A stretch of DNA of 64,000 bases from an uncultured bacterium. GTDB taxonomy: Bacteria > Omnitrophota > Gorgyraeia > Duberdicusellales > 4484-171. This document shows, one piece after another, positions 10,692 through 49,149 of this stretch. The stretch is taken from contig CAJXAF010000001.1 in the NCBI GenBank assembly GCA_913050175.1, positions 1,126-65,125 on the forward strand, given 5' to 3'. The position numbers and the translations under genes were made by a program. Under the pieces are notes generated by a model that worked only from the letters and a program-made list of their open reading frames with translations, was not told the DNA's origin and ran no database searches. The stretch's first letter is position 1. Each line of letters opens with the position of its first letter.

Positions 10692-10693
10692 TT

Positions 10694-12867: not shown

Positions 12868-13302
12868 ATGAGAATAAGCATTTTTTTATTTTTTTTATTT
12901 ACAGTTTGCAATAATTTAATATTTGCTGAAACAATAGTGCTTAACTCCGGAGAAGAAATCCAGGGGAAAATCGTTGAAAAAACCGATGCTTACATAAGAA
13001 TTTCAGATCCATCCGGTTTTCTCACGAAGCATGATAGTTCTGATATTAAAGATATTATCGATGATGCACCTGTATTTATAGAAGAAACCGAGCCTATTAG
13101 TGCAGCTGAGCCGATTTCTGACCCGGTAAGGCAAGAGCTTAGTGATAATTTAAAGAAAACTGAAAGCATGATTCAAGACACCTTAAAAGCTCTCTACCCC
13201 GCTCCTAAGAAAAGATCCGGTAACCAGGAAAAAGAGTCGGATAAGAGCAGCCTTCAAGAAGAAATAGACCGCAAATATAAGGGTTATGATAAATTTTACT
13301 AA
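12868..13302 (+). CDS. Hypothetical secreted protein with N-terminal β-motif shared with the 17916 protein
   Basis: Signal peptide then ETIVLNSGEEIQGKIVEKTDAYIRIS; RBS ggagga. Confidence 0.5.
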   Translation: MRISIFLFFLFTVCNNLIFAETIVLNSGEEIQGKIVEKTDAYIRISDPSGFLTKHDSSDIKDIIDDAPVFIEETEPISAAEPISDPVRQELSDNLKKTESMIQDTLKALYPAPKKRSGNQEKESDKSSLQEEIDRKYKGYDKFY

Positions 13303-13310
13303 AAATATCT

Positions 13311-13772
13311 ATGCGAGTTAGCGATCATGTAATTTACTGCCTTCCTCTTTCTTTAGCATTTTCCCTATATTTAAAATCACCGCTGCCAGGACTGTTATGT
13401 CTTGCTTCGGGAGTATTAATCGATGTTGATCATACTATTGAATATGTACAAGCATATGGTTTTAATTTAGGCTGCTTAAAGAAACTTCTTATAGCCACCC
13501 AGGTGAAATCTAAGAATAAAAAGATCTCTGATTTTAAGAAAATGTATCTTATTTTTCATAGTTTAGAATTTGTTATTATTTTTTGGATTATAGGTTTAGC
13601 TACTAAAAACCTATATTTTATAAGTGCAATTTCCGGGTATAGTCTACATATTTTACTTGATTTTATCGGTAACAGAGAGTATCCAAGATTTTATTGGATT
13701 ATCTGGCGGGCTAAAAATAAATTTTTGGTTGAAAAAATACTGCGTGTAGAAATCAATAAAGAACAATTATAG
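13311..13772 (+). CDS. Hypothetical polytopic membrane protein (possibly YdjM/DUF457-type metal-dependent hydrolase)
   Basis: Membrane helices with conserved His/Asp (IDVDHTIEY…HSLEF…HILLDFIGN); assignment tentative. Confidence 0.35.
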   Translation: MRVSDHVIYCLPLSLAFSLYLKSPLPGLLCLASGVLIDVDHTIEYVQAYGFNLGCLKKLLIATQVKSKNKKISDFKKMYLIFHSLEFVIIFWIIGLATKNLYFISAISGYSLHILLDFIGNREYPRFYWIIWRAKNKFLVEKILRVEINKEQL

Positions 13773-13808
13773 CAGTAATTTAGAAATATTAATTAAGAGG
13801 ATTCGGTT

Positions 13809-14797
13809 TTGAGAAAATTACTCATAGTTTGCTTGCTGCTTAGCTTAATTGCTTGTAATAGCCAAACCCCCCCAAACAGAAATCCAAACTCAATGTTAGT
13901 AAGGTAGAAAGCATTGGAGCAAAATCAGATGCTGGGGCAGATATTGCTCTCAATGGTATTATTTACGATGAAGGCCAGTCTTTAGCAATAATAAACGGTC
14001 AGATTTACTATCAAGGCGATTTCATAGGTCAGAATCAGATAATTGACATAGCAAGTGATTATGTACGGTTTAAGGCCAAAGATAGTGAGGATCATTCGAT
14101 AGTAAGACTATCTAGTGATCATAAAGAAGTAAGCGACCAGAAGTATTCGAAAGAAAAGTCTGTCAAAAAGGAGGAATCACGCCAATATCTTTTTGCCAAA
14201 GCTAAGCTTATAGATACAGAAGATTATCTTATCTTTATACCTGAGAAAACTAATTTTAACGATACCTATCCTTTAATTGTATTTTTTACTCCTGATGCCG
14301 ACACCAAAGGAACACTAAAGCATTTTAAGGATCTTGCTCAAAAATATAAGTGGCTGCTTTTTATATCTAAAGAGTTTCATATTGGTGTTGATATGGCTAA
14401 GGTAATTACTGATTTAGCTCTAACAATCGAAAGTTTATCAGAGAGCCTTCCAATAGATAAGTCTAAAATAATAGTAAGTGGATTTTCAGCCGGAGCAATG
14501 GGGGCTCATTTTTTTTCTTATGCAGAGCCTAAACTTATCTCAGCAATCATAATTAATAGTGGAACAATTCACCAGGATCTCAAAGGTGTAGTAACAGGTC
14601 ATCCAAAGTCAAAACGAGTAGTTTTCCTGGCGAGTCCGACCGATTATGGATACAAGAGCATGCTAGAGGATAAGCGATTTTTAGACAGCCTTGGTTGGAA
14701 GACTAAATGGATAGAATTTAAAGGTGGCCATAGACTCGCTCCTAAAGATATATATGAGAAGGCTTTTGCCTGGCTAAAAATTCAGTTTAGAGAGTAA
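13809..14797 (+). pseudogene. Lipoprotein α/β-hydrolase (esterase/PHB-depolymerase-like) interrupted by a frameshift at a C7 homopolymer; intact reading would give ~329 aa
   Basis: TTG start 8 nt after SD aagagg gives signal peptide MRKLLIVCLLLSLIAC (lipobox) that stops at 13905-13907. Downstream frame is open from 13862 to 14797 with no ATG until 14393. It encodes GFSAGAMGAH (GxSxG nucleophile elbow) and esterase-like C-terminus. One extra C in the C7 run 13867-13873 fuses both frames. Confidence 0.65.
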
Positions 14798-14884
14798 AAA
14801 GACCATAAAGGCATTAGGTTTTAAAACCTTTTCTACTTTTGAGCTCTATGCTATAATTTTCTAGTTCTCTATCATAAATTAAAA

Positions 14885-15775
14885 ATGATAATGTCTGCAG
14901 AAAAGCATAAATTAGAAGGAAATTTAGCCAATTGTCTTATAATTGGGGCACAGAAGTGTGCAACCTCAAGTTTATTCCATTATCTTAGCTTCCATCCCAA
15001 TGTCATTGCCTCAGCCCATAAAGAGCTTAATTTCTTTAATGAGGAGCTTTGTTGGGATAAAGGGCTTAATTGGTACAAATCTAATTTTGTAGGCAAAGCT
15101 AAAATTTATCTCGAAGCCTCACCTAGTTACACAAACTATCCCTTATATAAAGGCGTAGCCAAACGAATGCACTCTTTAATCCCCCAGGCAAAATTGATTT
15201 ATATAGTAAGAGACCCGATAGAGAGGTTAATTTCCCAATACTTAGATAGAGTCAAAGGCGGTCAGGAAACTCTTGCAATCGAAGATGCTTTTGTTGAGGG
15301 AGAAGATTCTGTATATATTGATTTTAGCAAGTATTATATGCAGTTAGAGCAGTTTTTAAATTATTATCCTAAAGAATCGTTTCTGATTTTAACAGCCGAA
15401 GAATTAAAAAATAAGCGCAGAGAAACTTTAAAGAGAGCATTTCGGTTTTTAAATATTGATGATGATTTTTATTGTGATGAGTTTTCCGACTTAATAAATG
15501 TTTCACGTGGTAAGTTAAAACGGAAAAAACCAAGGAGAATTGTTCGTTATTTTGCCCATGGCCCCAAGAAAAAGACTTCTTTTAGCAAATTAGGCTATGC
15601 AATGATCCCTAAAATCTTAAAGGACAAGGCTTTAGAATCAACAAAAACAGGGCAAAAGGTCTATCGACCTCTTTTATCCGAAGATCTAAGAAATAAGTTA
15701 ATCGAAGCCCTTAGGGCTGATATAGCCAAGTTAAGGGAGTTCAGCGGATGCAGTTTTAGCCAGTGGTGTCTGTAA
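14885..15775 (+). CDS. PAPS-dependent sulfotransferase (heparan-sulfate 3-O-sulfotransferase-like family), cytoplasmic
   Basis: CLIIGAQKCATSSLFHYLSFHP (5'-PSB P-loop) and LIYIVRDPIERLISQY (3'-PB motif); no signal peptide. Confidence 0.7.
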   Translation: MIMSAEKHKLEGNLANCLIIGAQKCATSSLFHYLSFHPNVIASAHKELNFFNEELCWDKGLNWYKSNFVGKAKIYLEASPSYTNYPLYKGVAKRMHSLIPQAKLIYIVRDPIERLISQYLDRVKGGQETLAIEDAFVEGEDSVYIDFSKYYMQLEQFLNYYPKESFLILTAEELKNKRRETLKRAFRFLNIDDDFYCDEFSDLINVSRGKLKRKKPRRIVRYFAHGPKKKTSFSKLGYAMIPKILKDKALESTKTGQKVYRPLLSEDLRNKLIEALRADIAKLREFSGCSFSQWCL

Positions 15776-15809
15776 TTTTTTTATGTTATAAATTAATAAA
15801 GGGGGGATT

Positions 15810-16235
15810 ATGGATAAGGGAATGAACATTATAAGCAAAATTACTAACTGGGTAAAGGCAATCTCTTCTCCGGGTAACTTAAGAAGTATATATGCAAAAT
15901 ATTCTACCCCTGTGTTTTTTCTCTTTGGTTTTTACATCCTTTACTGTTTATGCTTGATGCAGTTTATTATTTCTAAGTATAAATCTGCTGTTAATAATAA
16001 AGAAGCTTTTCTAGTAGTTTTCAAAGCAGCTGTTGGTAATGCCGTAATATTTTCAATTGGGTTAGCTATTTTGAGTTTTTGTCCTCAAACTAAGGCGGCT
16101 TCCCTCTTAAGTAGTTTTTTAGATGAACACTTTCCTTCAGCAATTATGCCCTTTATAATATCCCTAGGATGTATTATAATAGCATTTGTCTGGGCAGGTT
16201 TAACTAAAATCATTTCTACCAATAAAGATAAGTAA
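15810..16235 (+). CDS. Hypothetical polytopic membrane protein
   Basis: 3-4 TM helices, RBS aaaggggg. Confidence 0.45.
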   Translation: MDKGMNIISKITNWVKAISSPGNLRSIYAKYSTPVFFLFGFYILYCLCLMQFIISKYKSAVNNKEAFLVVFKAAVGNAVIFSIGLAILSFCPQTKAASLLSSFLDEHFPSAIMPFIISLGCIIIAFVWAGLTKIISTNKDK

Positions 16236-16267
16236 TATTTATCTTTATTGTAAGGGAATATCAATAT

Positions 16268-16486
16268 ATGACTCTATCAAAGTTAATGACAGTTCTGGGA
16301 TTTCTGGTGATTCTAACCGGGGTTCATAAGCTTTATTGCTCAATTAAGCCTGAGTCTGAGAGATGTTCTGTTTCTCCTGGCGAGGAGCCTTTTGAGGGAG
16401 CGACAGTAAATGAAAAGCTTTACACCTCAGGAGTTCGTTTTATTATATATGGATTTCTTATTCAATTGTTGAGGTTAGTAGTTTAA
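16268..16486 (+). CDS. Small two-TM membrane protein, paralog A
   Basis: …LTGVHKLYCSIKPESE…SGVRFIIYGFLIQLLRLVV; paralogous to ORF 16833..17063. Confidence 0.5.
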   Translation: MTLSKLMTVLGFLVILTGVHKLYCSIKPESERCSVSPGEEPFEGATVNEKLYTSGVRFIIYGFLIQLLRLVV

Positions 16487-16538
16487 ATCATACAAAAAAA
16501 TAGATTTAAGATATATAATTTATGAGGAGGAAGAGATA

Positions 16539-16811
16539 ATGAAATGTTGTCAGTGTAATAGCCCTAAAGTGTCTAACGGGAGAATTTTTAACCAAATAGA
16601 TTATATTGCTCCAGCAGCCTATTTTAGGCCCAATGGTTTAAGGACCTTTGCGATATTAGACACTAATGTTAGGATAAAAAATATTTTTTATAGTTGTTTG
16701 GATTGTGGATTTGTCTGGGGTGAGATTGACCCAGTTAAACTAAAGAAAGTAATAATTGAAAAAGCAACTGATAGCACTAAAGAAAGGCTAGATTTAAACA
16801 AAAAACAATAG
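16539..16811 (+). CDS. Zinc-ribbon small protein
   Basis: MKCCQCNSPK… CLDCGF two Cys pairs; strong RBS gaggaggaag. Confidence 0.5.
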   Translation: MKCCQCNSPKVSNGRIFNQIDYIAPAAYFRPNGLRTFAILDTNVRIKNIFYSCLDCGFVWGEIDPVKLKKVIIEKATDSTKERLDLNKKQ

Positions 16812-16832
16812 TTTAATAATAAAAGGAGGATC

Positions 16833-17063
16833 ATGGACAATGTCATAGATTATTCAACTTACCTTACAATATTGGGTCTTCTTACAACCTTAACAGGTAT
16901 TTATAAGCTACATCACTCAGTTAAAACTAATCCAGCCACTGAAATAACCTATCATGCTAAAGAGCCACATGATGCTGCAATAATCGATTATCATCAAGCA
17001 AGGTCAGGATTACGATTTACTATTTATGGTTTCTTAATACAAATGCTTACGGTAATATTTTAA
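16833..17063 (+). CDS. Small two-TM membrane protein, paralog B
   Basis: …LTGIYKLHHSVKTNP…SGLRFTIYGFLIQMLTVIF; RBS aaaggagg. Confidence 0.5.
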   Translation: MDNVIDYSTYLTILGLLTTLTGIYKLHHSVKTNPATEITYHAKEPHDAAIIDYHQARSGLRFTIYGFLIQMLTVIF

Positions 17064-17116
17064 GTGTTAAGTTATTTATCAGAAGAAAATATACTTCTAG
17101 TAAATTCAAAGTTCAG

Positions 17117-17395
17117 ATGAGATGCAATATTTTTTATCTTATTGCTGGTTTTGCCCTTCTTGTCAGTGCAGCTCTAACTAATTTACCGTCAAAAGAAGTA
17201 ATAAATCTTATAAATCCTGATAATCTATATAGTTTTCTTTCAAGGTTTCTTATGGATTCGGCAAAAACACCTTTAACCTGGGTGGGAATAGTTTTGCTAT
17301 TTTTTAGTTTTCGTGAACCAAAAGCTAAGATAAAAAAAGTAAAACTAGAAGCTAACGACAATCAAGGTAAAGATTTAAATAAATTAAAGACATAA
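17117..17395 (+). CDS. Hypothetical membrane protein
   Basis: Two hydrophobic helices, Lys-rich tail. Confidence 0.4.
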   Translation: MRCNIFYLIAGFALLVSAALTNLPSKEVINLINPDNLYSFLSRFLMDSAKTPLTWVGIVLLFFSFREPKAKIKKVKLEANDNQGKDLNKLKT

Positions 17396-17414
17396 AATAC
17401 TAAGAGGAGTTTTT

Positions 17415-17822
17415 ATGGATGGTTCTAAAAAAAGTGTGATCTTGATTATAATTGCTCTTTTAGTTGCCGGTATAATTGGATTAAGTTTCTATAGATCCCA
17501 GCGAGCTCCGACTATAGCAGTTGAGAAGATCTTAAGCTTTTGGCGCCCAGGTTATCATAATCTTGTTGGGGAGTACTGGCATAAAGATTCACGATATGAG
17601 ACTTTGTATAATGTAAGGCAATATAAAATTCTTAAATCAGAAATTAGAAAAGACCAAGCCAGAGTTATAACTAGAGTTAATTATATTACCGGCCATAAGT
17701 TGAAATTAGAAAATATATTTACCTTTCTCTTGAGCAAATCTAAAGGAAAGTGGAAGGCTTATAGGTACTATAAGGGTTTTAAAGATACTGAGACGAAAAA
17801 CAGAAGGGCCTTCTTGAATTGA
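17415..17822 (+). CDS. Hypothetical N-terminally anchored protein
   Basis: RBS aagaggag; single N-terminal TM. Confidence 0.45.
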   Translation: MDGSKKSVILIIIALLVAGIIGLSFYRSQRAPTIAVEKILSFWRPGYHNLVGEYWHKDSRYETLYNVRQYKILKSEIRKDQARVITRVNYITGHKLKLENIFTFLLSKSKGKWKAYRYYKGFKDTETKNRRAFLN

Positions 17823-17830
17823 GTTTATCT

Positions 17831-17914
17831 ATGACTGATACAAAAGTAAGAAAAATATTAGTAGTCGACGATGGGGAGGAGAACCTTAAGCTTTTAAATG
17901 AGAGAGGTATTTAA
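17831..17914 (+). pseudogene. 27-codon remnant resembling the N-terminus of a response-regulator receiver domain
   Basis: MTDTKVRKILVVDDGEENLKLLNERGI* matches the β1-α1 start of REC domains (ILVVDD…) then terminates. Confidence 0.3.
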
Positions 17915-17915
17915 A

Positions 17916-18920
17916 ATGAAACAAAGAAGATATTTGTTTTTAATTTTTTCTTTAGCATTTTCCTTCTATTTTTGCGGAAGTTCTTTTGCTGATATAGTTT
18001 TTCTAAAAAATGGCCGGGAATTAGAAGGGCAAATAATCAAGGAAGATGAATTAAAAATTTGGTTGCTTACTTATGGAAATGCTAAGATAGGCATAAAGAA
18101 ACGAGAAATATTAAAAATTGAACCTCAGGAATTTATAGCCAAAGATAGCAAGGCTCGTGGCGATACCACAAAGTCTAAAGGTCAAGCTAAAGGAAGCAAA
18201 AAAAGTAAGTACAATGTTATCTCTACTGAGGTTGTGTATGATGATATGGCCCGTAGCGATAAGAAAGATATTTATACTAAAGATTACTCAATCAGCGGCA
18301 CAACCTACCAACAAGTGCGCTTTAAAGACGGTAAAGCTATAGGTAAACACGTAGAATACAATAAAGACGGCACAGTTAAGTTGCAAGTCAGTATGTTAGG
18401 TAGTAAAAAAGAAGGAAAATTTGTCAGTTATTATAAAGGGGGTAGTATTAAGTATGAGGGTGAGTATGCGGGAGACTTAAAATCTGGTCTGCATAAGCAT
18501 TATTGGCCAAATGCTAGATTAAAATCTAAAATAACTTATAGATTAGATAAAAAGCATGGTTTAGCCCAAACCTTTTATGAAAGCGGAGAGTTGTTTGAGG
18601 AAGCTTATTATGTTGACGGCAAAAAGAGCGGAGAACAAAAACAATACTATAAAAGTGGTAAAGTATTAGCAGAGATGACTTATTTTAATGATGAGCCTCA
18701 AGCTAAGGGCAAAAAATATTATGAGAACGGTAAAACTCAAGAAGAGTATTTTTATGATCTCGGCGTAACAAAAGCTTACTTTGAAAGTGGAAAAATTAAG
18801 AGTGTAATTAACTTTAAGAAACTAAAGTATATTGAGTATGATGTTGAAGGTAATATCATTTATAATGGTGAACTGACCGATGAAATGGCAAATAAAGTTA
18901 AAGATCAAGATGACGAGTGA
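17916..18920 (+). CDS. Secreted MORN/YwqK-type repeat protein
   Basis: Signal peptide MKQRRYLFLIFSLAFSFYFCGSSFA (start chosen at second Met, SD gagagg) followed by DIVFLKNGRELEGQII motif. C-terminal half has ~23-aa repeats G-x-Y…G-x-x-x-G-x-Y (KEGKFVSYYKGGSIKYEGEY…, YYVDGKKSGEQKQYYKSGK…, KKYYENGKTQEEYFY). Confidence 0.6.
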   Translation: MKQRRYLFLIFSLAFSFYFCGSSFADIVFLKNGRELEGQIIKEDELKIWLLTYGNAKIGIKKREILKIEPQEFIAKDSKARGDTTKSKGQAKGSKKSKYNVISTEVVYDDMARSDKKDIYTKDYSISGTTYQQVRFKDGKAIGKHVEYNKDGTVKLQVSMLGSKKEGKFVSYYKGGSIKYEGEYAGDLKSGLHKHYWPNARLKSKITYRLDKKHGLAQTFYESGELFEEAYYVDGKKSGEQKQYYKSGKVLAEMTYFNDEPQAKGKKYYENGKTQEEYFYDLGVTKAYFESGKIKSVINFKKLKYIEYDVEGNIIYNGELTDEMANKVKDQDDE

Positions 18921-18945
18921 ACTATCTTAAAGGGAGGGATTAATC

Positions 18946-19116
18946 ATGGATTATTTTCAAGAAGCTGCAAACTGGTTTACTGAGGCTGAACATCTTTTCT
19001 TTAAGGACGAAACTCAGGCAAAGCAATTATTTTGTTCTGCCATGAAGAACCTCACCCTAGGCATGGGTGAAATCAAGACTTTATTAGAAAAAAAAGCCTC
19101 TCAAGATAACAACTAA
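18946..19116 (+). CDS. Small 56-aa hypothetical protein (below ORF-track cut-off)
   Basis: ATG 7 nt after SD aagggaggg; fills the 207-nt gap before the PilZ gene. Confidence 0.35.
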   Translation: MDYFQEAANWFTEAEHLFFKDETQAKQLFCSAMKNLTLGMGEIKTLLEKKASQDNN

Positions 19117-19127
19117 GGATTTTTTAG

Positions 19128-19481
19128 ATGAAAGAAAGAAGACATTTTCCCAGACTGGATATAACTAAGATAGACGTTTCTTGGACAAAAGATGATAATA
19201 ACAGAGAAACTGACAAGGTAAAAAACATTGCCGGCGGTGGGATTCGTTTAATATTGGATAAGGGTAATGTTAAAATCGGTGACATAATTAATTTAAAATT
19301 TAGTTTACCTAGCGGAGATGAAATTACTTCAAAAGGGAAAGTTATTTGGGTTAGAGCTTTTGAGATACTCGGTAATAATACTGAAGTCATCAATGAAGCT
19401 GGAATTGAATTCATTGATATCAGCCAAAAAGATAAATTTCTCATTAATCAATACATATTTTCCTTAATGCCACCAAAATAA
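19128..19481 (+). CDS. PilZ-domain protein
   Basis: RRHFPR (RxxxR), NIAGGGI (D/NxSxGG), GKVIWV. Confidence 0.8.
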   Translation: MKERRHFPRLDITKIDVSWTKDDNNRETDKVKNIAGGGIRLILDKGNVKIGDIINLKFSLPSGDEITSKGKVIWVRAFEILGNNTEVINEAGIEFIDISQKDKFLINQYIFSLMPPK

Positions 19482-19494
19482 AAAGGAGGGCAAA

Positions 19495-19953
19495 ATGCTT
19501 GCAAAAAAATTCGCTTTAGGATTTGGTCTCGCTATTATATTACCGATGATGATCCATTACGGTGTAAGCACATTTGTGGAACAACCTAAATGGGGAGATT
19601 ATCAGATAAGGGATTATTATCAACGCCATAAAGATGCCTCTCCGGAAGAGAAAAAAGAACTTCAAGCCAAAAGAGATCGCTTGCATGACGAGAGGAAAGT
19701 GAAAGAAAAACATTTTCAAAAGTATTTGTTCTTTGCAGCCATACCTCTAGGGATAACTGCAATTATTATTGGAGCTTTCCTTCCCATACAAGCAATTGGA
19801 ACTGGACTTATGTTTGGGGGCATCTTTAGCGTCTGCGATGGGTATATAAATTATTGGTCAGAATTAAGTGATGGTTTAAGATTCATCTCCTTGGTATTTG
19901 CATTTATCGTACTCATAGTTATTGGCTACAAAAAACTTGAAAGCAAAGCCTAG
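19495..19953 (+). CDS. Hypothetical membrane protein
   Basis: RBS aaaggaggg; 3 TM helices. Confidence 0.5.
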   Translation: MLAKKFALGFGLAIILPMMIHYGVSTFVEQPKWGDYQIRDYYQRHKDASPEEKKELQAKRDRLHDERKVKEKHFQKYLFFAAIPLGITAIIIGAFLPIQAIGTGLMFGGIFSVCDGYINYWSELSDGLRFISLVFAFIVLIVIGYKKLESKA

Positions 19954-27123: not shown

Positions 27124-28359
27124 TTGAGTAATAGTAAAGAGATTAAAATTACGCCTTTTGAATTAACCACTGAGGCAGGAGCTATCAAATTAATGACCTC
27201 CTTAGGCGTGACCAGTCAGGGGATTAAGATTTTAGCTGCTAAGAGCATCTTCTGCGCTTTTTTAATTAAAGGCATAAAATCCTGGGAAGCAAACATCATC
27301 AAGCAGCACCTCTTATCTTTAGGCTCTGATGCTGCAATTGAGCGTGATGCTTTGGTAAAGGATATAAATACAGACATTCTTATTTTTGGTAGCCGAAGCC
27401 AATTGAAACGCTTAAGTAATAAGCTAAAAGGACAGCCCTTTAGCTTAAAAGAAGTATCGAGGTTAATATCCTTATATTTAGAAAATTTGGAAAAAAAAGA
27501 ATTTGTTTTTCTGGCAAGAAAAAAAACCTTAAAAATAAGAAAGCCAATTGTTTGCGGAATAATTAATCTAACTAAAGATTCTTTTTCCGGCGATGGTTTA
27601 TTAGCTAAAGCAACAAGTTCAAGTGAGAAGATAAAGTTTCTGGCTTTAAAGAAAGCCGAACAAATGATAAAAGAAGGTGCTAAGATTCTTGATATTGGGG
27701 CTGAATCTTCGCGACCCTTTGCCAAGCAGCTTAGAGTTAAAGAAGAACTCGCTCAATTGATACCGGTAATTAAAGCAATACGTAAGGAATTTAAGAAAAT
27801 TCCCCTTTCAGTGGATACCTATAAATATCCGGTTGCTTATGAGGCAAGCTGTCTTGGCATTGATATTATAAATGATATAACAGCTTTAAGGCATAACCCT
27901 AAAATAGCCGATATCATAAAAAAGAACTCTTTAGGCTGTATTCTTATGCATATGAAAGGCAGCCCTTTGACTATGCAGCTTAATCCTTACCATAAAGACG
28001 TTGTTTGGGAGATAATTTCTTTTTTTAAAGACAGAATTAACTTTTTGAATAAAAAGGGCATTTCCCAAAACCAAATATGTCTTGATCCGGGAATAGGCTT
28101 TGGTAAAAGGTTAGAAGACAACACAAGGATAATTAACGAGCTTTATAAATTAAAAATTTTCGGTCTACCAATTTTCCTAGGTTTATCACGAAAATCATTT
28201 ATTGGGAAAATTCTTAAAAACAATATAGATCAGCGTCTGGCGGGAACTATAGCAGCCAATGTAGTCTCCATTAATAAGGGAGCAAATATTTTAAGAGTTC
28301 ATGATGTAAAAGAAACAGTCGAAGCTATTAAAATAGCTTCTAGTATTAATTTAAATTGA
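27124..28359 (+). CDS. folP: Dihydropteroate synthase with ~135-aa N-terminal extension
   Basis: Pterin-binding domain starts IVCGIINLTKDSFSGDG…; preceding 135 aa have no recognisable motif. Confidence 0.85.
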   Translation: MSNSKEIKITPFELTTEAGAIKLMTSLGVTSQGIKILAAKSIFCAFLIKGIKSWEANIIKQHLLSLGSDAAIERDALVKDINTDILIFGSRSQLKRLSNKLKGQPFSLKEVSRLISLYLENLEKKEFVFLARKKTLKIRKPIVCGIINLTKDSFSGDGLLAKATSSSEKIKFLALKKAEQMIKEGAKILDIGAESSRPFAKQLRVKEELAQLIPVIKAIRKEFKKIPLSVDTYKYPVAYEASCLGIDIINDITALRHNPKIADIIKKNSLGCILMHMKGSPLTMQLNPYHKDVVWEIISFFKDRINFLNKKGISQNQICLDPGIGFGKRLEDNTRIINELYKLKIFGLPIFLGLSRKSFIGKILKNNIDQRLAGTIAANVVSINKGANILRVHDVKETVEAIKIASSINLN

Positions 28360-29120
28360 TGGATTTTCTTGCTCGACCCATAAATTGGAAAGATATAGTT
28401 GAAGTAATAATTCTCTGGATTGTTATCTACCGTATTTTTCTTTTTTTAAAAGGAACAAAAGCTATCTATTTACTCCGGGGCATTGTTTTTCTAGTTGTAG
28501 CTTTGTTAGGTTTTCAACTATTTGATTTTCCGGTTTTAACCAGGTTACTCACATACTTTTTTGCTTTTTTTATTATTTTGGTTACAATAATTTTTCAACC
28601 CGAACTTAGAGACGGTCTTATCCATTTAGGTAAACGTCATATATTTTATATTGAGCCAAAAAAAGAGGAAATTGAGAAAACCTTGCGGGAAATAGTCTCA
28701 GTAGCAGGAGTCCTTTCCCGAAAAAAAATCGGTGCCCTTATCGCCATTCAAAGAGAGATACCGCTTAAAAGATATATTGAGAGCGGCGTAATATTAAATG
28801 CTGATATTAGCGCAGAATTGCTTCAGAGTATATTTTATCCCGGAGCCACCCTGCATGATGGAGGAGTTGTAGTAACCGGTAGAAGCATTATCGCCACTTC
28901 TTGTCTTTTCCCTTTAAGTGAGAATCCTGCTCTGGAAAGAGCTTTAGGTATGCGTCACCGGGCAGCTGTTGGTTTATCTGAACATTCGGATGCCTTGGTA
29001 ATAATTGTATCTGAGGAAAATGGTTCAGTTTCTTTAGCTATTAACGGACAATTGACTCGTAACTTAGCACCCAATGACTTACTTACAATACTAAAAGGGC
29101 AGTTGTCTAAACCACGTTAA
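28356..29120 (+). CDS. cdaA: Diadenylate cyclase CdaA (membrane-anchored DAC domain, c-di-AMP synthase)
   Basis: Three N-terminal TM helices then DAC motifs GALIAIQRE…HDGGVVV…RHRAAVGLSE. Confidence 0.88.
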   Translation: MMDFLARPINWKDIVEVIILWIVIYRIFLFLKGTKAIYLLRGIVFLVVALLGFQLFDFPVLTRLLTYFFAFFIILVTIIFQPELRDGLIHLGKRHIFYIEPKKEEIEKTLREIVSVAGVLSRKKIGALIAIQREIPLKRYIESGVILNADISAELLQSIFYPGATLHDGGVVVTGRSIIATSCLFPLSENPALERALGMRHRAAVGLSEHSDALVIIVSEENGSVSLAINGQLTRNLAPNDLLTILKGQLSKPR

Positions 29121-32674: not shown

Positions 32675-33025
32675 ATGCAAGAAGAACGCCGGGAAAAAAT
32701 CAGGATAGAGGAATCTTTAACTGTTAGACATTCACCCGCTAAAAGTCTCTTTATTAGTTCATCTGAGACTAAGAATATTTCAAGCGGCGGCCTGTGTTTT
32801 CCTGCTTTGCAGAGACTGGAACCGGAAATGGCCCTGGATCTTGATATTGATTTACCGGGTTTTAAAGAACCCATTAAAGCTGAGGCTAAAGTAATCTGGC
32901 TATCTGAAATAAGTGATATTAATCACCGTTATGATGTAGGGGTGCAATTTGCAAAGATAAGTTCTACCGACCACAGTAAAATACTCCACTATATTTCCAG
33001 CAAATTCGATAATTTAAATATGTAA
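32675..33025 (+). CDS. PilZ-domain protein
   Basis: RREKIR, NISSGGL, AKVIWL. Confidence 0.8.
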   Translation: MQEERREKIRIEESLTVRHSPAKSLFISSSETKNISSGGLCFPALQRLEPEMALDLDIDLPGFKEPIKAEAKVIWLSEISDINHRYDVGVQFAKISSTDHSKILHYISSKFDNLNM

Positions 33026-33822: not shown

Positions 33823-34134
33823 GTGCATAATGAATCATTTGGACATCGTAGATCTTCTAAAAGAAGAGCATGTTTTTTAGCTGCTGGGTATTTATTGTTT
33901 GATAAAGCTCCTTACCTTGCAAAATACCATGATATTAATCTTGATGGTATAGGAGCAATAGTTGATAAACCTTTACCGGTTAATATACAGGTTAAAATAG
34001 CTCTCAATACAAAAAAGAAAGGTTTGGTTTTAGTTAAGGGCAAAGTATGTTGGTGTAAAAAAGCCCAGCTTGGCTGGCGCTTAGGAATATCTTTTAACCG
34101 TAAGCTATCGTATGAAACTACTATGATTGCTTAG
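33823..34134 (+). CDS. PilZ-domain protein (divergent)
   Basis: RRSSKRR (RxxxR), DINLDGIG (DxSxxG with S→N), GKVCWC; SD agggaggcc. Confidence 0.65.
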   Translation: MHNESFGHRRSSKRRACFLAAGYLLFDKAPYLAKYHDINLDGIGAIVDKPLPVNIQVKIALNTKKKGLVLVKGKVCWCKKAQLGWRLGISFNRKLSYETTMIA

Positions 34135-34137: not shown

Positions 34138-34503
34138 TTGCTTTATAAAAATGGCTTTTTAAAAGATAAGGCTATTATGATTCAAAGAAGAAAACAAAAA
34201 AGAGTTAAAATATCATTTCCAATTGAGTGCGATTGCCTGTCTCACCGTAACTATTTCTGCTCAGTCAGCAGGGATTTGAGTTTAACCGGGATACAAACCG
34301 TAAATAATAGTTTTATACCTAAAGATAGCATAGTAAAGATCAATATTAACCTTATTGATAGATTTGTAAGCTTAAAAGCTAATGTTATCTGGAGCATAAA
34401 AAAGAGAGCCTCAGAAAGATATTCTACTGGTCTAGAGTTTATTGAAACAACTCAGGCCCATAAGAGGCATATCACTCACTTCCTACACAACCTCACTGCT
34501 TAA
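34138..34503 (+). CDS. PilZ-domain protein
   Basis: RRKQKR, DLSLTGI, ANVIWS; true start may be Met at 34177 (MIQRRKQKR). Confidence 0.75.
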   Translation: MLYKNGFLKDKAIMIQRRKQKRVKISFPIECDCLSHRNYFCSVSRDLSLTGIQTVNNSFIPKDSIVKININLIDRFVSLKANVIWSIKKRASERYSTGLEFIETTQAHKRHITHFLHNLTA

Positions 34504-34809: not shown

Positions 34810-35178
34810 ATGAATGAATATGGTGGTTCAGAGAGAAGAGGGCATCCGCGAGTTGATGTAAATTTTGTTGTAAGTTACAGGATTCAAGAAACAGCTCACG
34901 ATTACGATCTTTCTCAAACAAAAAATTTAAGTCAAGGCGGTATGCTTCTTACAACAAATAAAAAATTTACTCAAGGTACATGTTTATCTATGATTTTACG
35001 TTTTCCCTTGATACCACAGAAAATCGAAGTTACTGGAATAATTGTAGATTCTAAAGAAGTAGTAAGAGACATTATCTATGAAACAAGAATACAGTTTCTG
35101 GATTTGGATAAAGAATTTTTCTATAAATTAGGTGAGTTTATCAAGGATAATTTGAAGGATGACCTAAAGAATGATTAA
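34810..35178 (+). CDS. PilZ-domain protein (overlaps hom start by 8 nt)
   Basis: RRGHPR, NLSQGGM; SD ggcgaggagg; stop TAA inside ATGATTAA of hom. Confidence 0.8.
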   Translation: MNEYGGSERRGHPRVDVNFVVSYRIQETAHDYDLSQTKNLSQGGMLLTTNKKFTQGTCLSMILRFPLIPQKIEVTGIIVDSKEVVRDIIYETRIQFLDLDKEFFYKLGEFIKDNLKDDLKND

Positions 35179-44247: not shown

Positions 44248-44910
44248 TTATGTTCTGGTAATTGTTTTTGCCAGAGTTAATACAGAAACACTTCCTGCTT
44301 GTTTTTCCTTTAGGGCCATGCTGGCGAAATATGCGGTTGATCCGGTTGTAAAAATATCGTCTATTAGGAGTACTCTTTGCCCCTTTAATGATTTTGTTGC
44401 CAGGAAAGCACCTTTTACATTTTCTTTTCTCTGAGAAAAAGATAGCCTGGTTTGAGAGGGCTTATTTATTATAAGTCGTATTATATCATTGCCAAGAGGT
44501 ATTTTAAACTGTTTTGACAACAATTGGGCCAGCAGCTGGGATTGGTTATAACCCCTTGATTTTAGCTTATAGGCGTGCATGGGTACAGAAACTATCAAAT
44601 CATAATTTAGAAAATTAAACTTTATTTTACTAAGATGGCTAACCATTATCTTGGTAAAGAAGCCAGCTAGAAAATCGTATTTTTTATACTTAAAAAACCC
44701 TATTAAATCTATGAGTGGTTGTTTGTAGGCTGTAGTGCTTATGACTAAATCGTAGGGGAAAGATATGCTTGAACATTTTCGACAAATTTTCTGCCTGTTT
44801 AACTTAAGTGGCTTTGAACAAAACTTACATAGGGGAGGATAGAGAAAGTATATTTTTTTAAAACAATCTGGGCAGAGAGGTTTGCTTTTAGCTTTTCTAT
44901 CACAAATCAA
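44248..44910 (-). CDS. comF: ComF-family protein (zinc ribbon + phosphoribosyltransferase domain)
   Basis: N-terminal CPDC…C…C zinc ribbon and C-terminal PRTase motif VLLIDDIFTTGSTA. Confidence 0.8.
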   Translation of the reverse strand: MICDRKAKSKPLCPDCFKKIYFLYPPLCKFCSKPLKLNRQKICRKCSSISFPYDLVISTTAYKQPLIDLIGFFKYKKYDFLAGFFTKIMVSHLSKIKFNFLNYDLIVSVPMHAYKLKSRGYNQSQLLAQLLSKQFKIPLGNDIIRLIINKPSQTRLSFSQRKENVKGAFLATKSLKGQRVLLIDDIFTTGSTAYFASMALKEKQAGSVSVLTLAKTITRT

Positions 44911-45089
44911 ACAAAGATTGGGGAATAAGACGTTACCTAGGGCCTTAATATACCTTTTTAAGGTGAAAGATTTTATAATTTTATTTTCTTCCTTGTAAAG
45001 ATACTATGAATATATAGAATATATATAATATACTATCATTTTAATTAAAATTTAATACCTAATTAATTGACCTGCTATTTCTTTTATGA

Positions 45090-45134
45090 TACCATGGTTT
45101 TATGGTACTTACCGTAACTACAGTAAATACGGTA
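45090..45134. promoter_or_regulatory. Two adjacent palindromes (TACCAT-N6-ATGGTA and TACCGTA-N11-TACGGTA) upstream of the HTH gene: candidate operator
   Basis: Perfect inverted repeats at 45090-45107 and 45110-45134, 40-85 nt upstream of the 45176 start. Confidence 0.4.
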
Positions 45135-45175
45135 ATTGAAGATTAGAGTATTTTTTTAAGAAAAGAGAGCAAGCA

Positions 45176-45424
45176 ATGGCAAGTCAAAGCAATAACCATA
45201 ACAATAAAATGATTTCTGCCAGAGATATCATGACCCAGTATGACGTTACCTATCAAACTGTTAACCACTATACAGATTTTGGCCTTCTTACAGTCAAAGC
45301 AAAAAGAGGAAATGTCAGATTTTACGATAAGATTCTAGTTAAAGAACGGATGCAGAAAATAAGGCTTTTTATTGAAGAGGGGTACTCTCTTCGTCTAATA
45401 CGTAAGAAATTAATTGGAATTTAA
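45176..45424 (+). CDS. Small MerR/excisionase-like HTH DNA-binding protein
   Basis: 82 aa; ISARDIMTQYDVTYQTVNHYTDFGLL…RGNVRFYD resembles MerR-superfamily/Xis-type winged HTH. Confidence 0.5.
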   Translation: MASQSNNHNNKMISARDIMTQYDVTYQTVNHYTDFGLLTVKAKRGNVRFYDKILVKERMQKIRLFIEEGYSLRLIRKKLIGI

Positions 45425-45450
45425 GGGCTTTTTAAAAAAGAGAGTGGAAG

Positions 45451-46332
45451 ATGAGTTATTTTAAAATTTTAGGATTTGAAAAGGAACCATTTTCAACTAG
45501 TCCGGACCCTGATTTTTTATATTTAGCCAAGGATCACGATACAGTTTTAATGAACACCTTAATTGAGTTGCGTTTGCGCCGGGGCTTAAGCGTGATTTTA
45601 GGTGATGTCGGTACAGGCAAGACTACCCTTTCCCGTAAACTCATTCAAGAGCTTAAAGACAGAGAAGATTTTATCTTTCACATGGTTTTAGATCCATCTT
45701 TTTCAGATGAGCATTCCTTCCTTGATTATTTAGCCAGGAGTCTTGATATACCAACTCAAGGCCTATCGTCAGCTGTAGCCTTAAGAGATACTTTAGAAAA
45801 ATATTTATTCCAAAAAGGGGTAATTGAAGGCAAGATTGTTGTTTTGATAATAGATGAGGCCCAGAAATTAAACGAAACATCTTTAGAGATGTTAAGGGTT
45901 CTGTTTAATTATGAGACTAATGAATTTAAGTTAATTCAAATAGTTCTCCTAGGACAGCTGGAACTACACTCAAAGATTATTGATATTGCTAATTTTTTTG
46001 ATCGGATAAGCTTTAAATACACACTCAATCCTTTAAGTAAGGAAGAGACTAAGGAGATGATTGAGTTTCGAATCAAAAAAGCAGGTTATAAATCAAGCAT
46101 GCACTTATTTTTGGATGAAGCCATCAGCGAAGTTTATCAGGCCAGTAAGGGTTATCCCCGACGCATAACTATGCTTTGCCATAGGTTGCTCAAAGAGCTT
46201 ATTTTAAAAAACAAGGTTGTTGTCGATGCCAACTTTGTAAAAAGCATTATTCGTAAAGATATTCAATCTGGTTGGCACCACGATGATGCTTTAAATAGGG
46301 AACAGGCCTTGGTTTATCAATTTCAAAGATGA
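45451..46332 (+). CDS. ExeA/TniB-like AAA+ ATPase (type II secretion GspA / MshM-like, ATPase domain only)
   Basis: Walker A LGDVGTGKTTLSRKL, Walker B VVLIIDEAQKL, sensor region; ~290 aa typical of ExeA N-domain. Confidence 0.7.
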   Translation: MSYFKILGFEKEPFSTSPDPDFLYLAKDHDTVLMNTLIELRLRRGLSVILGDVGTGKTTLSRKLIQELKDREDFIFHMVLDPSFSDEHSFLDYLARSLDIPTQGLSSAVALRDTLEKYLFQKGVIEGKIVVLIIDEAQKLNETSLEMLRVLFNYETNEFKLIQIVLLGQLELHSKIIDIANFFDRISFKYTLNPLSKEETKEMIEFRIKKAGYKSSMHLFLDEAISEVYQASKGYPRRITMLCHRLLKELILKNKVVVDANFVKSIIRKDIQSGWHHDDALNREQALVYQFQR

Positions 46333-46421
46333 TTATTGAAAATCACAAAGGAGTTTTGTCTGTAGATAGTGAGTCGGGTAAAGGAACAGTGGTAAGGATT
46401 ATTTTACCTTTAATAAGGTGA
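46299..46421 (+). pseudogene. Vestigial C-terminal ~40 aa of a sensor histidine kinase (G2 box to end), no upstream catalytic core
   Basis: Frame opens right after a stop at 46296-98 and encodes GTGLGLSISKMIIENHKGVLSVDSESGKGTVVRIILPLIR*. This is the canonical HATPase_c G2 box (GTGLGLSI) and terminal β-strands; N, G1 and F boxes are absent in all frames. Confidence 0.6.
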
Positions 46422-46466
46422 ACTGATTAGTTTTTGTCAAAATGTTTATTCAAAAGGAGGTGGCTT

Positions 46467-46841
46467 ATGCGTACCGTACTGATAATTGATGATGAAGAAG
46501 ATTTAACATTTTTTGTAAAAGCAAACCTTGAATTATCGGGAGAGTACAAGGTAATAATTGCCAATAATGGCAGGGATGGCATCAAAGCGGCCGAACACCT
46601 TAAGCCTGATGTTGTTCTTTTAGACATCATGATGCCTCAGATGGATGGCCTTGAAGTTTTAGCTAAATTAAAAAAATCAATTAAAACACTATCCATTCCC
46701 GTAGTTATGCTTTCAGCTAAGGGAGATGATGAGTCTAAGGTTTATGCTGCCAGCTCTTATAACGAAGACTACATTGTAAAGCCAGTACAGATTGAATTTT
46801 TAAAAGAAAAGCTAGATCAAGTCTTAGGCTTGAGAGAATAG
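46467..46841 (+). CDS. Stand-alone response-regulator receiver (CheY-like)
   Basis: MRTVLIIDDEEDLTFFVKANLELSGEYKV…DVVLLDIMMPQMDGLEVL…LSAKGD; start set at ATG 46467 after SD aaaggagg. Confidence 0.85.
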   Translation: MRTVLIIDDEEDLTFFVKANLELSGEYKVIIANNGRDGIKAAEHLKPDVVLLDIMMPQMDGLEVLAKLKKSIKTLSIPVVMLSAKGDDESKVYAASSYNEDYIVKPVQIEFLKEKLDQVLGLRE

Positions 46842-46863
46842 TTTTAAGATAAAAAAGAGTTTT

Positions 46864-47217
46864 ATGGTAGAAAGGAGAAAATACGTACGTTTTCGGGCGT
46901 CTTTTTTGTTCAAGTTTAAAAATCACGCACCTAACGGAGCTCAGGGTGTGGTTAAAGATGTTAGCATGAGCGGTTTAAGGGTAGTTTTAGACAAATCTGT
47001 TGAGTTAGATTCCAACTCCCAACTTAATTTTTATTTACTCCTTCCCAGCCAAACTTTTGAAATATCCGGAGAAACTGTTTGGGTGGATATTTTCGATAAT
47101 AGAAAAGAAGCCGGTATTCACTTTACCAATATCGCTGATAGCTATAAAGAGGATATTTATAACTATATTTCAAAGTACTATCGTGAGGAACTAGTGCATA
47201 AGTGGTGGCAATCTTAA
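46864..47217 (+). CDS. PilZ-domain protein
   Basis: RRKYVR, DVSMSGL, GETVWV. Confidence 0.8.
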   Translation: MVERRKYVRFRASFLFKFKNHAPNGAQGVVKDVSMSGLRVVLDKSVELDSNSQLNFYLLLPSQTFEISGETVWVDIFDNRKEAGIHFTNIADSYKEDIYNYISKYYREELVHKWWQS

Positions 47218-47243
47218 AACTGCTGCTATTAATAACCATTTAG

Positions 47244-47582
47244 ATGCAAGCTATTTTTTCCTGGACCATACTTTTTACTTACTCTTTTTTTATCATTGTT
47301 CTTTCTTTTATGCCGATCAGGGCCCCTGAGGTCGTTATTATCCCTTTTTTAGATAAGATTATTCATACCTTTGCTTATATGCTACTTTCTTTTTTAACTG
47401 TAAATACTCTCTGTAAAAAGAGAAAAGCCCGGCCCCGGCTGATTAGCTTTTCTTATGCCTTTTTATTAGGATTTGCAATTGAGATAATTCAGCATTTTTT
47501 GCCTTATAGAGCCTTCGAAGCAGGAGATATTTTTTCAAATTCTTTAGGAGGTTCTCTAGGGTTATTTTTAAGAGCAGTATAG
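47244..47582 (+). CDS. VanZ-like family membrane protein
   Basis: Four TM helices with VanZ-type motif (…FLDKIIHTFAYMLLSF…GFAIEIIQHFLPYRAFEAGDIFSNSLG…). Confidence 0.7.
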   Translation: MQAIFSWTILFTYSFFIIVLSFMPIRAPEVVIIPFLDKIIHTFAYMLLSFLTVNTLCKKRKARPRLISFSYAFLLGFAIEIIQHFLPYRAFEAGDIFSNSLGGSLGLFLRAV

Positions 47583-47595: not shown

Positions 47596-49149
47596 ATGGG
47601 AAATCAAAATAATAATTTAGCCAACTTACTTGATGATAGCGTTAGTCGATTTCCTAAGAGGGTAGCTTTAATTTTTGGTTCAAGAAAGATTACTTATGCT
47701 CAGTTAGGTTTTATCAGTCGGAAGATTTCCGGAGGATTGTTAAATCTAGGTATAAAGCCTTCAGACAAAGTTGCTCTCTGGTTGCCTAATTGCCGGGAAT
47801 TTATCTATTCTTACTTTGCGATTTTGCGCCTGGGAGCAACAGTAGTGCCGGTAAATAACATGTTAAAGAGAGAGGAGGCAAGGTATGTTATTGAGGATTC
47901 CCAAGCAAAGACACTTATCTGTTCTATCGATAAGACTGAAGATGCAAAAAATATTCTTTCCCGGATTGAAAGTTTAGAAAATGTAATAGTTTCACCCTTT
48001 CCCAAGGATGATAGAATAGTTTTGAATTTTACTAAACTTATCCATGAAAGCCAAGAATTTAAGCAAAAAACTGAAATAAAAGAAAGCGATATAGCCCAGA
48101 TAGTTTATACTTCCGGTACAACCGGTAAACCTAAAGGGGTTTGCCTTACTCACAGTAATATTTATTCTAATGTTAGAGCTTCAGCTTTGGCAATTTACTT
48201 TAATAAGCGGGATTCACTTATCTGTATCTTGCCGCTCTTTCATTCTTTTGCTTCAACCGTTTGCATGTGTTTACCTCTTTATAAAGGAGCAAAAATTGTG
48301 CTTATGCGATCAGTCCGGCCGTTTAAGAGGATCATCCGGGCTATATTTAAACACCGGGTAACTGTCTTCATCGGTGTACCTTCGCTTTACAATATTTTAA
48401 ACGAAATGAAATTAAAAAAATGGCAGTGGATATTTAATCTTATTCTAAATCCGCTCCGCTTATCAATTTCCGGAGCTGCAGCTCTTCCTGGTTCTGTTTG
48501 GCAGAAATTCGAGAAAAAATTTAAACGGCCGCTCCTGCAAGGCTATGGCCTAACTGAAGCTTCTCCGGTTGTTTCCATGAACCCTTTAAAAGGTAGGAGA
48601 AAACCTGATTCAATCGGCTTGCCAGTTGATAAAGTTCTCATAAAAATTGTTGATAAAAATGACAAGGAAGTACCTCTGGGTCAGGTGGGAGAGTTATTAG
48701 TTAGAGGCCCTAATGTAATGCAGGGATATTTTAATTTAGAAGCTGAAACCGCAAAAGTCTTAAAAAACGGCTGGCTATATACTGGAGACTTAGCTAAGAA
48801 GGATAAAGACGGCCACTTTTATATAATTGGCCGTAGTAAGGAGATGATAAATGTCCGCGGTTTTAATGTCTATCCCCGGGAAATAGAAGATATCCTTTAT
48901 AAATATCCTCATGTAAAAGAAGCAGCTGTGGTAGGAGTTAACCACAAACATAGAGGTGAAGTGCCGGTTGTTTTTCTGGTAAGTGATAAAGAAATCTCTC
49001 AGCGAGAGGTAATTGTTTATTTACGCAACAATCTTGCCAGCTATAAGGTGCCGCTTAAAGTATTTTTTAAAGATAACCTGCCTAAGAATACTACCGGTAA
49101 GATTCTTAAGCGTCAACTTAAAGACGAGATAAAGGATTTGTTTGAATGA
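47596..49149 (+). CDS. AMP-dependent synthetase/ligase (long-chain fatty-acid--CoA ligase-like)
   Basis: AMP-binding motif IVYTSGTTGKPKGV, motifs GYGLTE, …TGDL…DGH.YI.GR…, C-terminal Lys (…TTGKILKRQL). Confidence 0.88.
   Translation: MGNQNNNLANLLDDSVSRFPKRVALIFGSRKITYAQLGFISRKISGGLLNLGIKPSDKVALWLPNCREFIYSYFAILRLGATVVPVNNMLKREEARYVIEDSQAKTLICSIDKTEDAKNILSRIESLENVIVSPFPKDDRIVLNFTKLIHESQEFKQKTEIKESDIAQIVYTSGTTGKPKGVCLTHSNIYSNVRASALAIYFNKRDSLICILPLFHSFASTVCMCLPLYKGAKIVLMRSVRPFKRIIRAIFKHRVTVFIGVPSLYNILNEMKLKKWQWIFNLILNPLRLSISGAAALPGSVWQKFEKKFKRPLLQGYGLTEASPVVSMNPLKGRRKPDSIGLPVDKVLIKIVDKNDKEVPLGQVGELLVRGPNVMQGYFNLEAETAKVLKNGWLYTGDLAKKDKDGHFYIIGRSKEMINVRGFNVYPREIEDILYKYPHVKEAAVVGVNHKHRGEVPVVFLVSDKEISQREVIVYLRNNLASYKVPLKVFFKDNLPKNTTGKILKRQLKDEIKDLFE

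Follow-up and report, generated by a model that had tools for sequence, protein, structure and literature searches.

GspA (ExeA), together with GspB (ExeB), is needed for assembly of the secretin GspD (ExeD) in the type II secretion of Aeromonas and Vibrio (PMC4098917). The MSHA operon of Vibrio cholerae, mshI-J-K-L-M-N, places an ExeA homologue, MshM, beside the secretin MshL and the TPR protein MshN, and deletion of mshM did not reduce pilus production (PMC4624765). Omnitrophota possess a conserved type-II-secretion-like locus containing gspD/E/F, as well as runs of small pilZ genes beside giant genes (bioRxiv 10.1101/2023.11.21.568195). Here we describe positions 45090-47217 and their flanks in a 64-kb stretch of Omnitrophota DNA (the window), where the gene for a GspA/ExeA/MshM-type ATPase runs directly into the last 40 codons of a histidine-kinase gene, followed by genes for a receiver (REC) and a PilZ protein.

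The host is a marine, oxygen-minimum-zone population of Omnitrophota, placed by source names at TARA stations 037/039 (mesopelagic). Gene calls are based on Pfam scans and a listing of open reading frames (ORFs), and related loci are referred to by L-numbers, L010 being the complete genome CP070807.1 and L156 the 1,048-nt contig k141_1410715 of ENA ERZ27250393.

The junction between the ATPase and kinase genes

We consider the locus to be the scar of an illegitimate recombination, most simply of a single deletion, which would have removed a secretin gene cluster and ~95% of a kinase gene; we give this reading a probability of roughly 0.62. The genes concerned and the junction between them are as follows.

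44248..44910, minus strand: ComF-like gene with double zinc ribbon and phosphoribosyltransferase domains (Pfam DZR_2 and Pribosyltran); left flank, syntenic with L017, L014 and L099
45176..45424, plus strand: MerR_1-type helix-turn-helix (HTH) protein of 82 residues (Pfam PF13411, E 7e-8); conserved first gene of the class-1 operon
45451..46332, plus strand: GspA/ExeA/MshM-type AAA_22 ATPase of 293 residues (Pfam AAA_22, E 7e-23)
46296..46308, plus strand: recombination junction, placed by DNA comparison with the ATPase ends of L006, L011 and L017 and the kinase G2 boxes of L016, L098, L012 and L014
46299..46421, plus strand: histidine-kinase remnant from the G2 box to the C-terminus, 40 codons and the native stop (HATPase_c positions 72-109 of 111, E 7e-9)
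46467..46841, plus strand: stand-alone receiver, REC (Pfam Response_reg PF00072, E 4e-24), with its own Shine-Dalgarno sequence AAGGAGG
46864..47217, plus strand: stand-alone PilZ protein (Pfam PF07238, E 2e-14) with RxxxR (RRKYVR) and DxSxxG (DVSMSG) motifs
47244..47582, plus strand: VanZ-like membrane protein (Pfam VanZ); start of the conserved right flank

An original prediction made from this DNA had listed the HTH protein, ATPase, kinase tail, intact receiver and PilZ protein, and Pfam places all five where it had put them. Native ATPase sequence reaches approximately position 46303, and tblastn homology to ATPases spans 45451-46308; the last ~10 codons of the ORF are kinase DNA read in the wrong frame up to the TGA at 46330-46332. 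The ORF is nonetheless essentially full length: ~3-5 poorly conserved C-terminal residues are swapped for ~10 frame-shifted ones, and the proteins of relatives have 286 residues. The kinase tail reads GTGLGLSISKMIIENHKGVLSVDSESGKGTVVRIILPLIR, in a frame different from that of the ATPase and directly after a TAG at 46296-46298. It aligns with the last 40-42 residues of orthologous kinases, which are PAS-GAF-HisKA-HATPase_c proteins of 454-889 residues, with its stop at the same position, and is 70% and 82% identical to the C-termini of the L016 and L156 kinases. The tail is a true vestige, as originally proposed: tblastn of the whole 64 kb with full kinases and every secretin-cluster protein (E<=10) detected no HisKA, N box, G1 box or other kinase part in any frame. 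We infer from this that the stub is non-functional, capable of neither ATP binding nor autophosphorylation. A programmed-frameshift fusion of ATPase and kinase was considered and rejected, as a bare tail from G2 box to C-terminus is not enough for an ATP-binding domain; the overlap at ATGA, through which a 30-residue peptide could be translated, is most simply coincidental.

Comparison with relatives resolves both sides of the junction. On the ATPase side, relatives end ...AGGGAGGAGG(C/T)ATGA, while the window reads ...AATAGGGAACAGGCCTTGG; on the kinase side, the codons of the G2 box follow the pattern GGnACnGGnCT and relatives read AAAGG(C/T)AC(A/G)GG. The two sides share an imperfect, purine-rich microhomology with an AGGGA..AGG motif. 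The crossover is located in this microhomology, within 46296-46308, as is characteristic of illegitimate recombination. The junction is not an assembly artefact, because it is spanned at 100% identity by contigs from at least five assemblies, independent of one another and produced with different assemblers (ENA ERZ27286381 and ERZ27286384, JGI 3300020423 and 3300035205, and TARA ERZ2773079). The exact 293-residue ATPase, with its last residues from the kinase tail, is encoded on at least nine contigs. A look-up based on the PilZ gene, which is unbiased as to the junction, found the junction in all long contigs, the short ones beginning inside REC, and turned up no intact kinase in any strain of this population.

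Contigs of several assemblies end or start inside REC (~46658-46714) and again inside the AMP-ligase gene (~48755-48763). One TARA scaffold (L159, positions 1-234) has 234 nt of unrelated sequence, with a minus-strand ORF (MDIPQLEDFFEPDPHDAD...) lacking any Pfam match, joined to window position 46673, which may mean that strains differ in structure here or that the scaffold is chimeric.

The flanks on either side of the junction are each syntenic with relatives, in which the sequence continues differently. L017 has ArgS, RecJ, L28, LptF, LptG, ComF and the ATPase in the order and orientation of the window (51-79% amino acid identity, 79% for the ATPase), and the secretin cluster continues after it. 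The right flank runs VanZ, AMP-ligase, RluA, thioesterase, DUF192 and arg operon. In L014/L015, L016, L012, L157 and L099, a full-length kinase is followed by REC (67-74% identical), VanZ, AMP-ligase and RluA, with the thioesterase and DUF192 matched in the longer contigs (L014/L015 and L016) and the arg operon in L014/L015. REC orthologues are 67-92% identical overall, each located after a full-length kinase or, on the short L156 contig, after at least 162 residues of kinase C-terminus. Because the secretin cluster that follows the ATPase and the 5' part of the kinase gene are missing from the window, we read the event as a loss of DNA and not a gain.

The closest relative, L156, has a REC 92% identical in amino acids and 83% in nucleotides. 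Its contig encodes the intact catalytic C-terminus of the kinase, then REC, then the start of PilZ (82% over 45 residues). At the nucleotide level it is homologous to the window over 701 nt (83%), from precisely position 46299 onwards. Since L156 has kinase, REC and PilZ in that order, HK-REC-PilZ (HK, histidine kinase) was the state of the immediate ancestor, which bears out the ancestral signalling unit that had been postulated. Synonymous divergence (dS) from L156 is ~0.65 for the tail and receiver and ~0.52 for the PilZ fragment; the ratio of nonsynonymous to synonymous divergence (omega) is 0.18 for the tail, 0.06 for REC and 0.21 for the PilZ fragment, and the tail contains no stop or frameshift. 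These values would fit, if weakly, a deletion that is young compared with the divergence from L156. A further change to the same kinase may be recorded in L157 (9885-9908; JGI 3300033149 Ga0366834_1004117), where the orthologous gene is split into ORFs of 688 and 210 residues by a frame change near HisKA: either the sequence is in error or the kinase was inactivated a second time, independently.

The receiver reads IIDDEED, LLDIMMP, MLSAK and VKP in translation, which supply the acidic pocket, Asp, Ser/Thr and Lys of receivers; it retains all catalytic residues and has lost the adjacent kinase. The PilZ protein, which has both motifs, is a predicted receptor for cyclic di-GMP (c-di-GMP). Its gene lies between REC and VanZ in the window and L156 lineages only; because the more distant relatives L012, L014, L016, L099 and L157 lack it there, PilZ was gained in this sub-lineage.

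Seven stand-alone PilZ genes are found in the 64 kb (12043-12411, 19128-19481, 32675-33025, 33823-34134, 34138-34503, 34810-35178 and 46864-47217; Pfam PilZ E 8e-8 to 2e-14), of which three are consecutive (33.8-35.2 kb). A second REC and PilZ pair at 11623-12003 and 12043-12411 is only distantly related to that at 46467-47217 (33% and 19% identity), so the pairing recurs in the genome and is not a recent duplication.

The ATPase, its regulator and the secretin operon of relatives

The ATPase has the Walker A (GDVGTGKTT) and Walker B (VVLIIDEAQ) motifs of a P-loop AAA_22 protein. Searches returned more than 6,000 matches, of which the best 120 are 282-294 residues long and 67-82% identical; the closest proteins are all from Omnitrophota, and the closest orthologues are 72-82% identical. 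An alignment of 12 sequences, the window protein and 11 relatives, has 113 invariant columns, all kept in the window protein by construction, as it is one of the 12. The identical protein is annotated in Tara data as COG3267/K02450 (ExeA/GspA). Its best NCBIfam match, TIGR03015 (XrtA/PEP-CTERM-associated ATPase), scores 188.3 bits, below the cut-off of 324.5, and reflects no more than a related ExeA-like subfamily. The transmembrane segment and periplasmic peptidoglycan-binding domain of 60-kDa ExeA were not found in the 293 residues, where Pfam shows ATPase-domain families only. AlphaFold2 on the 12-sequence alignment gave a poor model (mean pLDDT 56, pTM 0.43).

Gene context, namely secretin linkage across Omnitrophota, was decisive for assigning the family. 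In 73 of 80 ATPase loci from GTDB Omnitrophota species representatives, a secretin gene is located within a few kb 3' of the ATPase gene, usually after a gene like that for the 231-residue protein described below, and the other seven contigs stop less than 2 kb past the ATPase. Homologues of GspF, a pseudopilin, GspK, a PilM/N (GspL-like) fusion and GspM precede the ATPase in most of the 80 loci. This is the position that GspA/ExeA holds relative to GspD, and it matches the pairing of MshM with MshL/MshN. An MshM/ExeA-type ATPase had been the fallback of the original prediction, and it is this assignment that proves correct. In the window itself, no gene for a secretin or for the small partner protein was found in 64 kb (tblastn, E<=10).

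The closest orthologues (L006/L007, L010, L011, L017, L020 and L021) share one operon, with the order MerR (not in L017), ATPase, ~490-residue protein, ~230-residue protein, secretin, coiled-coil/TPR protein and second secretin. The ~490-residue protein has no Pfam match and is shorter in L010 (347 residues); in L006, L011 and L017 its start codon (ATG) overlaps the stop codon of the ATPase gene. The ~230-residue (231-residue) protein has a weakly T2SSC-like C-terminus, the first secretin is GspD-like, and the coiled-coil/TPR protein is 734-1027 residues long. L017 has additional genes after the second secretin, for a TPR protein, a 200-residue protein and a divergent second AAA_22 ATPase. This second ATPase gene (17012-17308), at the end of the two-secretin cluster, is 33% identical to the window ATPase: some Omnitrophota thus have two ExeA-like ATPases in one locus.

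The protein encoded 5' of the ATPase matches PF13411 over residues 19-79 with 32.9 bits (cut-off 21.6), the winged-helix HTH found at the N-terminus of MerR proteins, and with only 82 residues it has little room for an effector domain. Orthologues occupy the same place in L006 (68%), L011 (79%) and L010, L020 and L021 (41-46%). L017 (6247-6447) is without a MerR-type gene, and has the conserved promoter ~70 nt from the ATPase start. As L017 differs in this from five related loci and the window, MerR is dispensable in at least one lineage. The gene is divergent from that for ComF, the two being arranged head to head, and not convergent with it as had been stated. Between them lie three elements:

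45067..45095, plus strand: promoter-like site TTGACC-17-TACCAT with a TG-extended -10 element (consensus scan)
45090..45107, no strand: inverted repeat 1, TACCAT-N6-ATGGTA, overlapping the -10 element; read from sequence, not conserved in relatives
45109..45135, no strand: inverted repeat 2, TTACCGTA-N11-TACGGTAA; partly kept in L006 (GGTACTTACTGTA...CCGGTAA)

The repeats had been described as two perfect palindromes, but both are interrupted, by spacers of 6 and 11 nt. They are not significant by themselves, because 20% of shuffles of this AT-rich spacer produce an inverted repeat with 8-nt arms. The count of promoter-like sites found by consensus scan in the region is likewise not above chance. 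Conservation is more informative: a TTGACC-17-TAnnAT site is found upstream in the window, L006 and L017, and TTAATTGACC and TATGnTAnnAT are kept upstream of the orthologues in L006 and L017. With the promoter-like site kept in both of these relatives and the second dyad partly kept in L006, the elements belong to the native promoter region of the operon, and 45067..45095 is the candidate native promoter of a MerR-ATPase(-secretin) operon. The dyads are at or just 3' of this site, whose spacer is 17 nt, and not inside a spacer of 19-20 nt, the long-spacer layout in which MerR-family regulators bind a dyad; inverted repeat 2 is possibly an operator or a 5'-untranslated-region hairpin. An Rfam scan of 44800-47400 for riboswitches or leader RNAs gave a sole match, a chance snoRNA (E 0.42). 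L010 (CP070807.1, 9560-9740) has three direct repeats of ~18 nt (AAATGTAACTAAATGGAG-like) 5' of MerR instead of the dyad, and may represent a different operator layout in the same operon.

Elsewhere in the window, a gene for a prepilin peptidase (Peptidase A24 and its N-terminal domain) lies at 7057-7935 among genes of aromatic amino-acid biosynthesis. Even with the secretin cluster lost at 46.3 kb, the organism thus continues to process type IV pilin-like proteins. A DisA_N/DAC-domain protein of the cyclic di-AMP (c-di-AMP) synthase type is encoded at 28356-29120, and thus the window encodes both c-di-AMP and c-di-GMP signalling components. The 10 kb at 10230-19953 contain mostly small ORFs (90-150 residues) without Pfam matches, several with N-terminal hydrophobic segments, interspersed with genes for a sulfotransferase (14885-15775) and a MORN-repeat protein (17898-18920).

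Histories considered for the locus

A deletion would account for the arrangement as follows. The ancestral order would have started with ArgS-RecJ-L28-LptF-LptG-ComF(-), then the promoter, MerR and the ATPase. The middle would have contained the 490-residue protein, the 231-residue protein, secretin 1, the coiled-coil/TPR protein, secretin 2 and the TPR protein, possibly with more type-II-secretion-like genes and a second kinase/receiver pair. The PAS-GAF histidine kinase, REC, PilZ, VanZ and AMP-ligase would have followed. One crossover site would have been the purine-rich 3' end of the ATPase coding sequence (AGGGAGGAGG), where relatives also have the ribosome-binding site for the gene that follows; the other would have been the GGnACnGG codons in the G2 box of the kinase, and everything between the two would have been removed. 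The ATPase would thereby have acquired a new end of ~10 residues with its Walker motifs and all conserved positions kept, the kinase would have been cut to a 40-codon stub, and MerR and the ATPase would have been separated at this locus from their usual secretins. REC, PilZ and the genes after them would have been left without a kinase. As there is no terminator-like site between ATPase and REC, REC-PilZ-VanZ are probably transcribed by read-through from the MerR-ATPase promoter. MerR and the ATPase may be intact either through the recency of the event or because they still serve a secretin encoded elsewhere.

Judging by the L017 cluster and an 889-residue kinase, the deletion would have been at least ~12 kb. 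A second kinase/receiver pair is located 5' of the orthologous kinase in L012, L157 and L098, and a GspF-to-GspM block further upstream in L012 and L157; if these genes lay between the breakpoints, the deletion would exceed 20 kb.

Several observations weigh against a deletion. Scans of genome contigs and metagenomes and look-ups of contigs found no contig of a relative that carries both the ATPase cluster and the orthologous kinase, and ancestral collinearity is thus inferred from two half-syntenies; a protein search with the L156 kinase fragment returned short fragments only, of at most 61% identity. In at least one related organism, represented by L006 and L157, cluster and kinase are apparently not adjacent, the L157 receiver (P0137) not being recorded on the 75.5-kb contig that starts with MerR-ATPase, and the complete genome CP070807 has the cluster elsewhere. 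In L014 and L099, ComF is directly beside the kinase without an ATPase cluster, which makes gene order here fluid. The selection estimate for the tail covers 40 codons only, and the secretin cluster may persist outside the 64 kb that were searched.

This last point is the substance of a rearrangement in which nothing was lost overall. An inversion or translocation at these two breakpoints would have carried the secretin cluster, along with the 5' part of the kinase gene, to another site, so that secretins would still be produced and the ATPase would serve them in trans. We regard this as rather unlikely. The position of the cluster does vary, from beside ComF in L017 to between TPR genes and pth in L010 to contigs separate from the kinase in L006/L157, the MerR and ATPase ORFs are fully intact, and the persisting prepilin peptidase gene points to some type IV filament machinery. 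However, neither a reciprocal junction nor a secretin gene was found in the 64 kb or in contigs with genes of this population, an inversion would leave the displaced genes nearby in opposite orientation, where there are none, and a simple deletion takes one event. An artefactual origin of the junction, by chimeric assembly or a sequencing frameshift, can practically be set aside: the assembly breaks in REC and the L159 join at 46673 speak for it, but the junction of ATPase and kinase tail itself is identical in the five assemblies.

The remaining explanations assign the arrangement a function or a foreign origin. MerR and the ATPase could have been retained to act with REC and the c-di-GMP-binding PilZ as a new signalling unit, in which the ATPase is kept under selection for a secretin-independent role, e.g. 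as a nucleotide-dependent switch controlling, or co-regulated with, REC and PilZ. That would give a first indication that the poorly understood MshM/short-ExeA ATPases can have a regulatory function, and we think this reading improbable. The four ORFs are intact and probably co-transcribed, the junction is the sole form in all populations sampled, and REC-PilZ pairs recur (11623-12411). Yet a recent deletion equally predicts intact ORFs, the population samples are 100% identical and so uninformative on selection after the event, and none of ~90 related loci has the ATPase beside REC-PilZ without intervening secretin genes. The favoured idea of the original prediction, that an HTH gene and a TniB/TnsC-like ATPase gene were inserted as a mobile or defence cassette in place of most of the kinase gene, is less credible still. 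There is weak similarity to such ATPases, from Pfam TniB (17.2 bits, E 0.0035, cut-off 22.4), PADLOC TnsC (19 bits) and, among solved structures, MuB and Cdc6 as best matches (E ~0.005, MuB over the generic AAA+ core). But the family matches are below their thresholds and the PADLOC defence library gave generic AAA+ matches only, so that the resemblance to transposition-target ATPases is confined to the level of the AAA+ clade. For neighbouring genes, the precomputed Pfam lists show no transposase, either in the window or in the relatives whose gene tables were read. The search of the flanks for terminal inverted repeats and target-site duplications, which had been suggested, found none beyond chance, direct and inverted repeats around MerR-ATPase being AT-rich chance matches. 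GC content (35.7%) is flat across the MerR-ATPase genes and matches the flanks. The pair is instead native: orthologues are inherited vertically and linked to secretins across Omnitrophota, and L017 has the ATPase in the same place, behind six syntenic genes and adjacent to ComF, with the whole secretin cluster still following. We thus view the ATPase as a vertically inherited GspA/ExeA/MshM-type protein of this lineage.

Comparison with known systems

Under the deletion reading, the apparent "composite module" does not represent a new system but is what ordinary gene loss left behind, one more example of kinds already known. It serves as a caution: a seemingly designed combination of operator, HTH protein, ATPase, kinase stub, receiver and PilZ protein is explained by comparative synteny, and for this reason the locus should not be pursued as a transposon-targeting or defence system. 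The analysis also documents the short ExeA/MshM-like ATPase as a near-universal neighbour of secretin genes in Omnitrophota, which in one clade heads a MerR-regulated two-secretin operon. In one marine oxygen-minimum-zone lineage, the ATPase would have outlasted the secretin cluster and the PAS-GAF kinase at this locus. Provided that it still works, such a natural orphan could be used to study what these ATPases do besides secretin assembly.

That deletions leave gene remnants is a general phenomenon of streamlined or host-dependent bacterial genomes, and the window would provide one instance, a short in-frame 3' fragment at a microhomology junction with its neighbours intact.

The window ATPase shares with GspA/ExeA the cytoplasmic P-loop ATPase domain (AAA_22, COG3267, K02450), and in its Omnitrophota relatives the gene is beside those for the 231-residue partner and a GspD-like secretin, in GspF-G-K-L/M-like clusters. 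ExeA, however, is a ~60-kDa protein with a transmembrane segment and a periplasmic peptidoglycan-binding domain (PMC4098917), whereas the protein described here and its relatives consist of the ATPase domain only (286-293 residues), and the window is without the secretin and partner genes. The published Omnitrophota locus (bioRxiv 10.1101/2023.11.21.568195) is from the same phylum and has its runs of small pilZ genes in common with the seven stand-alone PilZ genes of the window, but the window has no giant gene and would have lost the secretin part at this locus. By architecture and by the context of its relatives, the ATPase resembles MshM, a short, ATPase-only ExeA homologue linked to a secretin and TPR proteins. 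L017 has a secretin, a coiled-coil/TPR protein, a secretin and a TPR protein after the ATPase, a context absent from the window. Unlike in the MSHA operon, the ATPase gene of these relatives comes first, behind a MerR-type regulator, and is followed by two secretins and large coiled-coil/TPR proteins.

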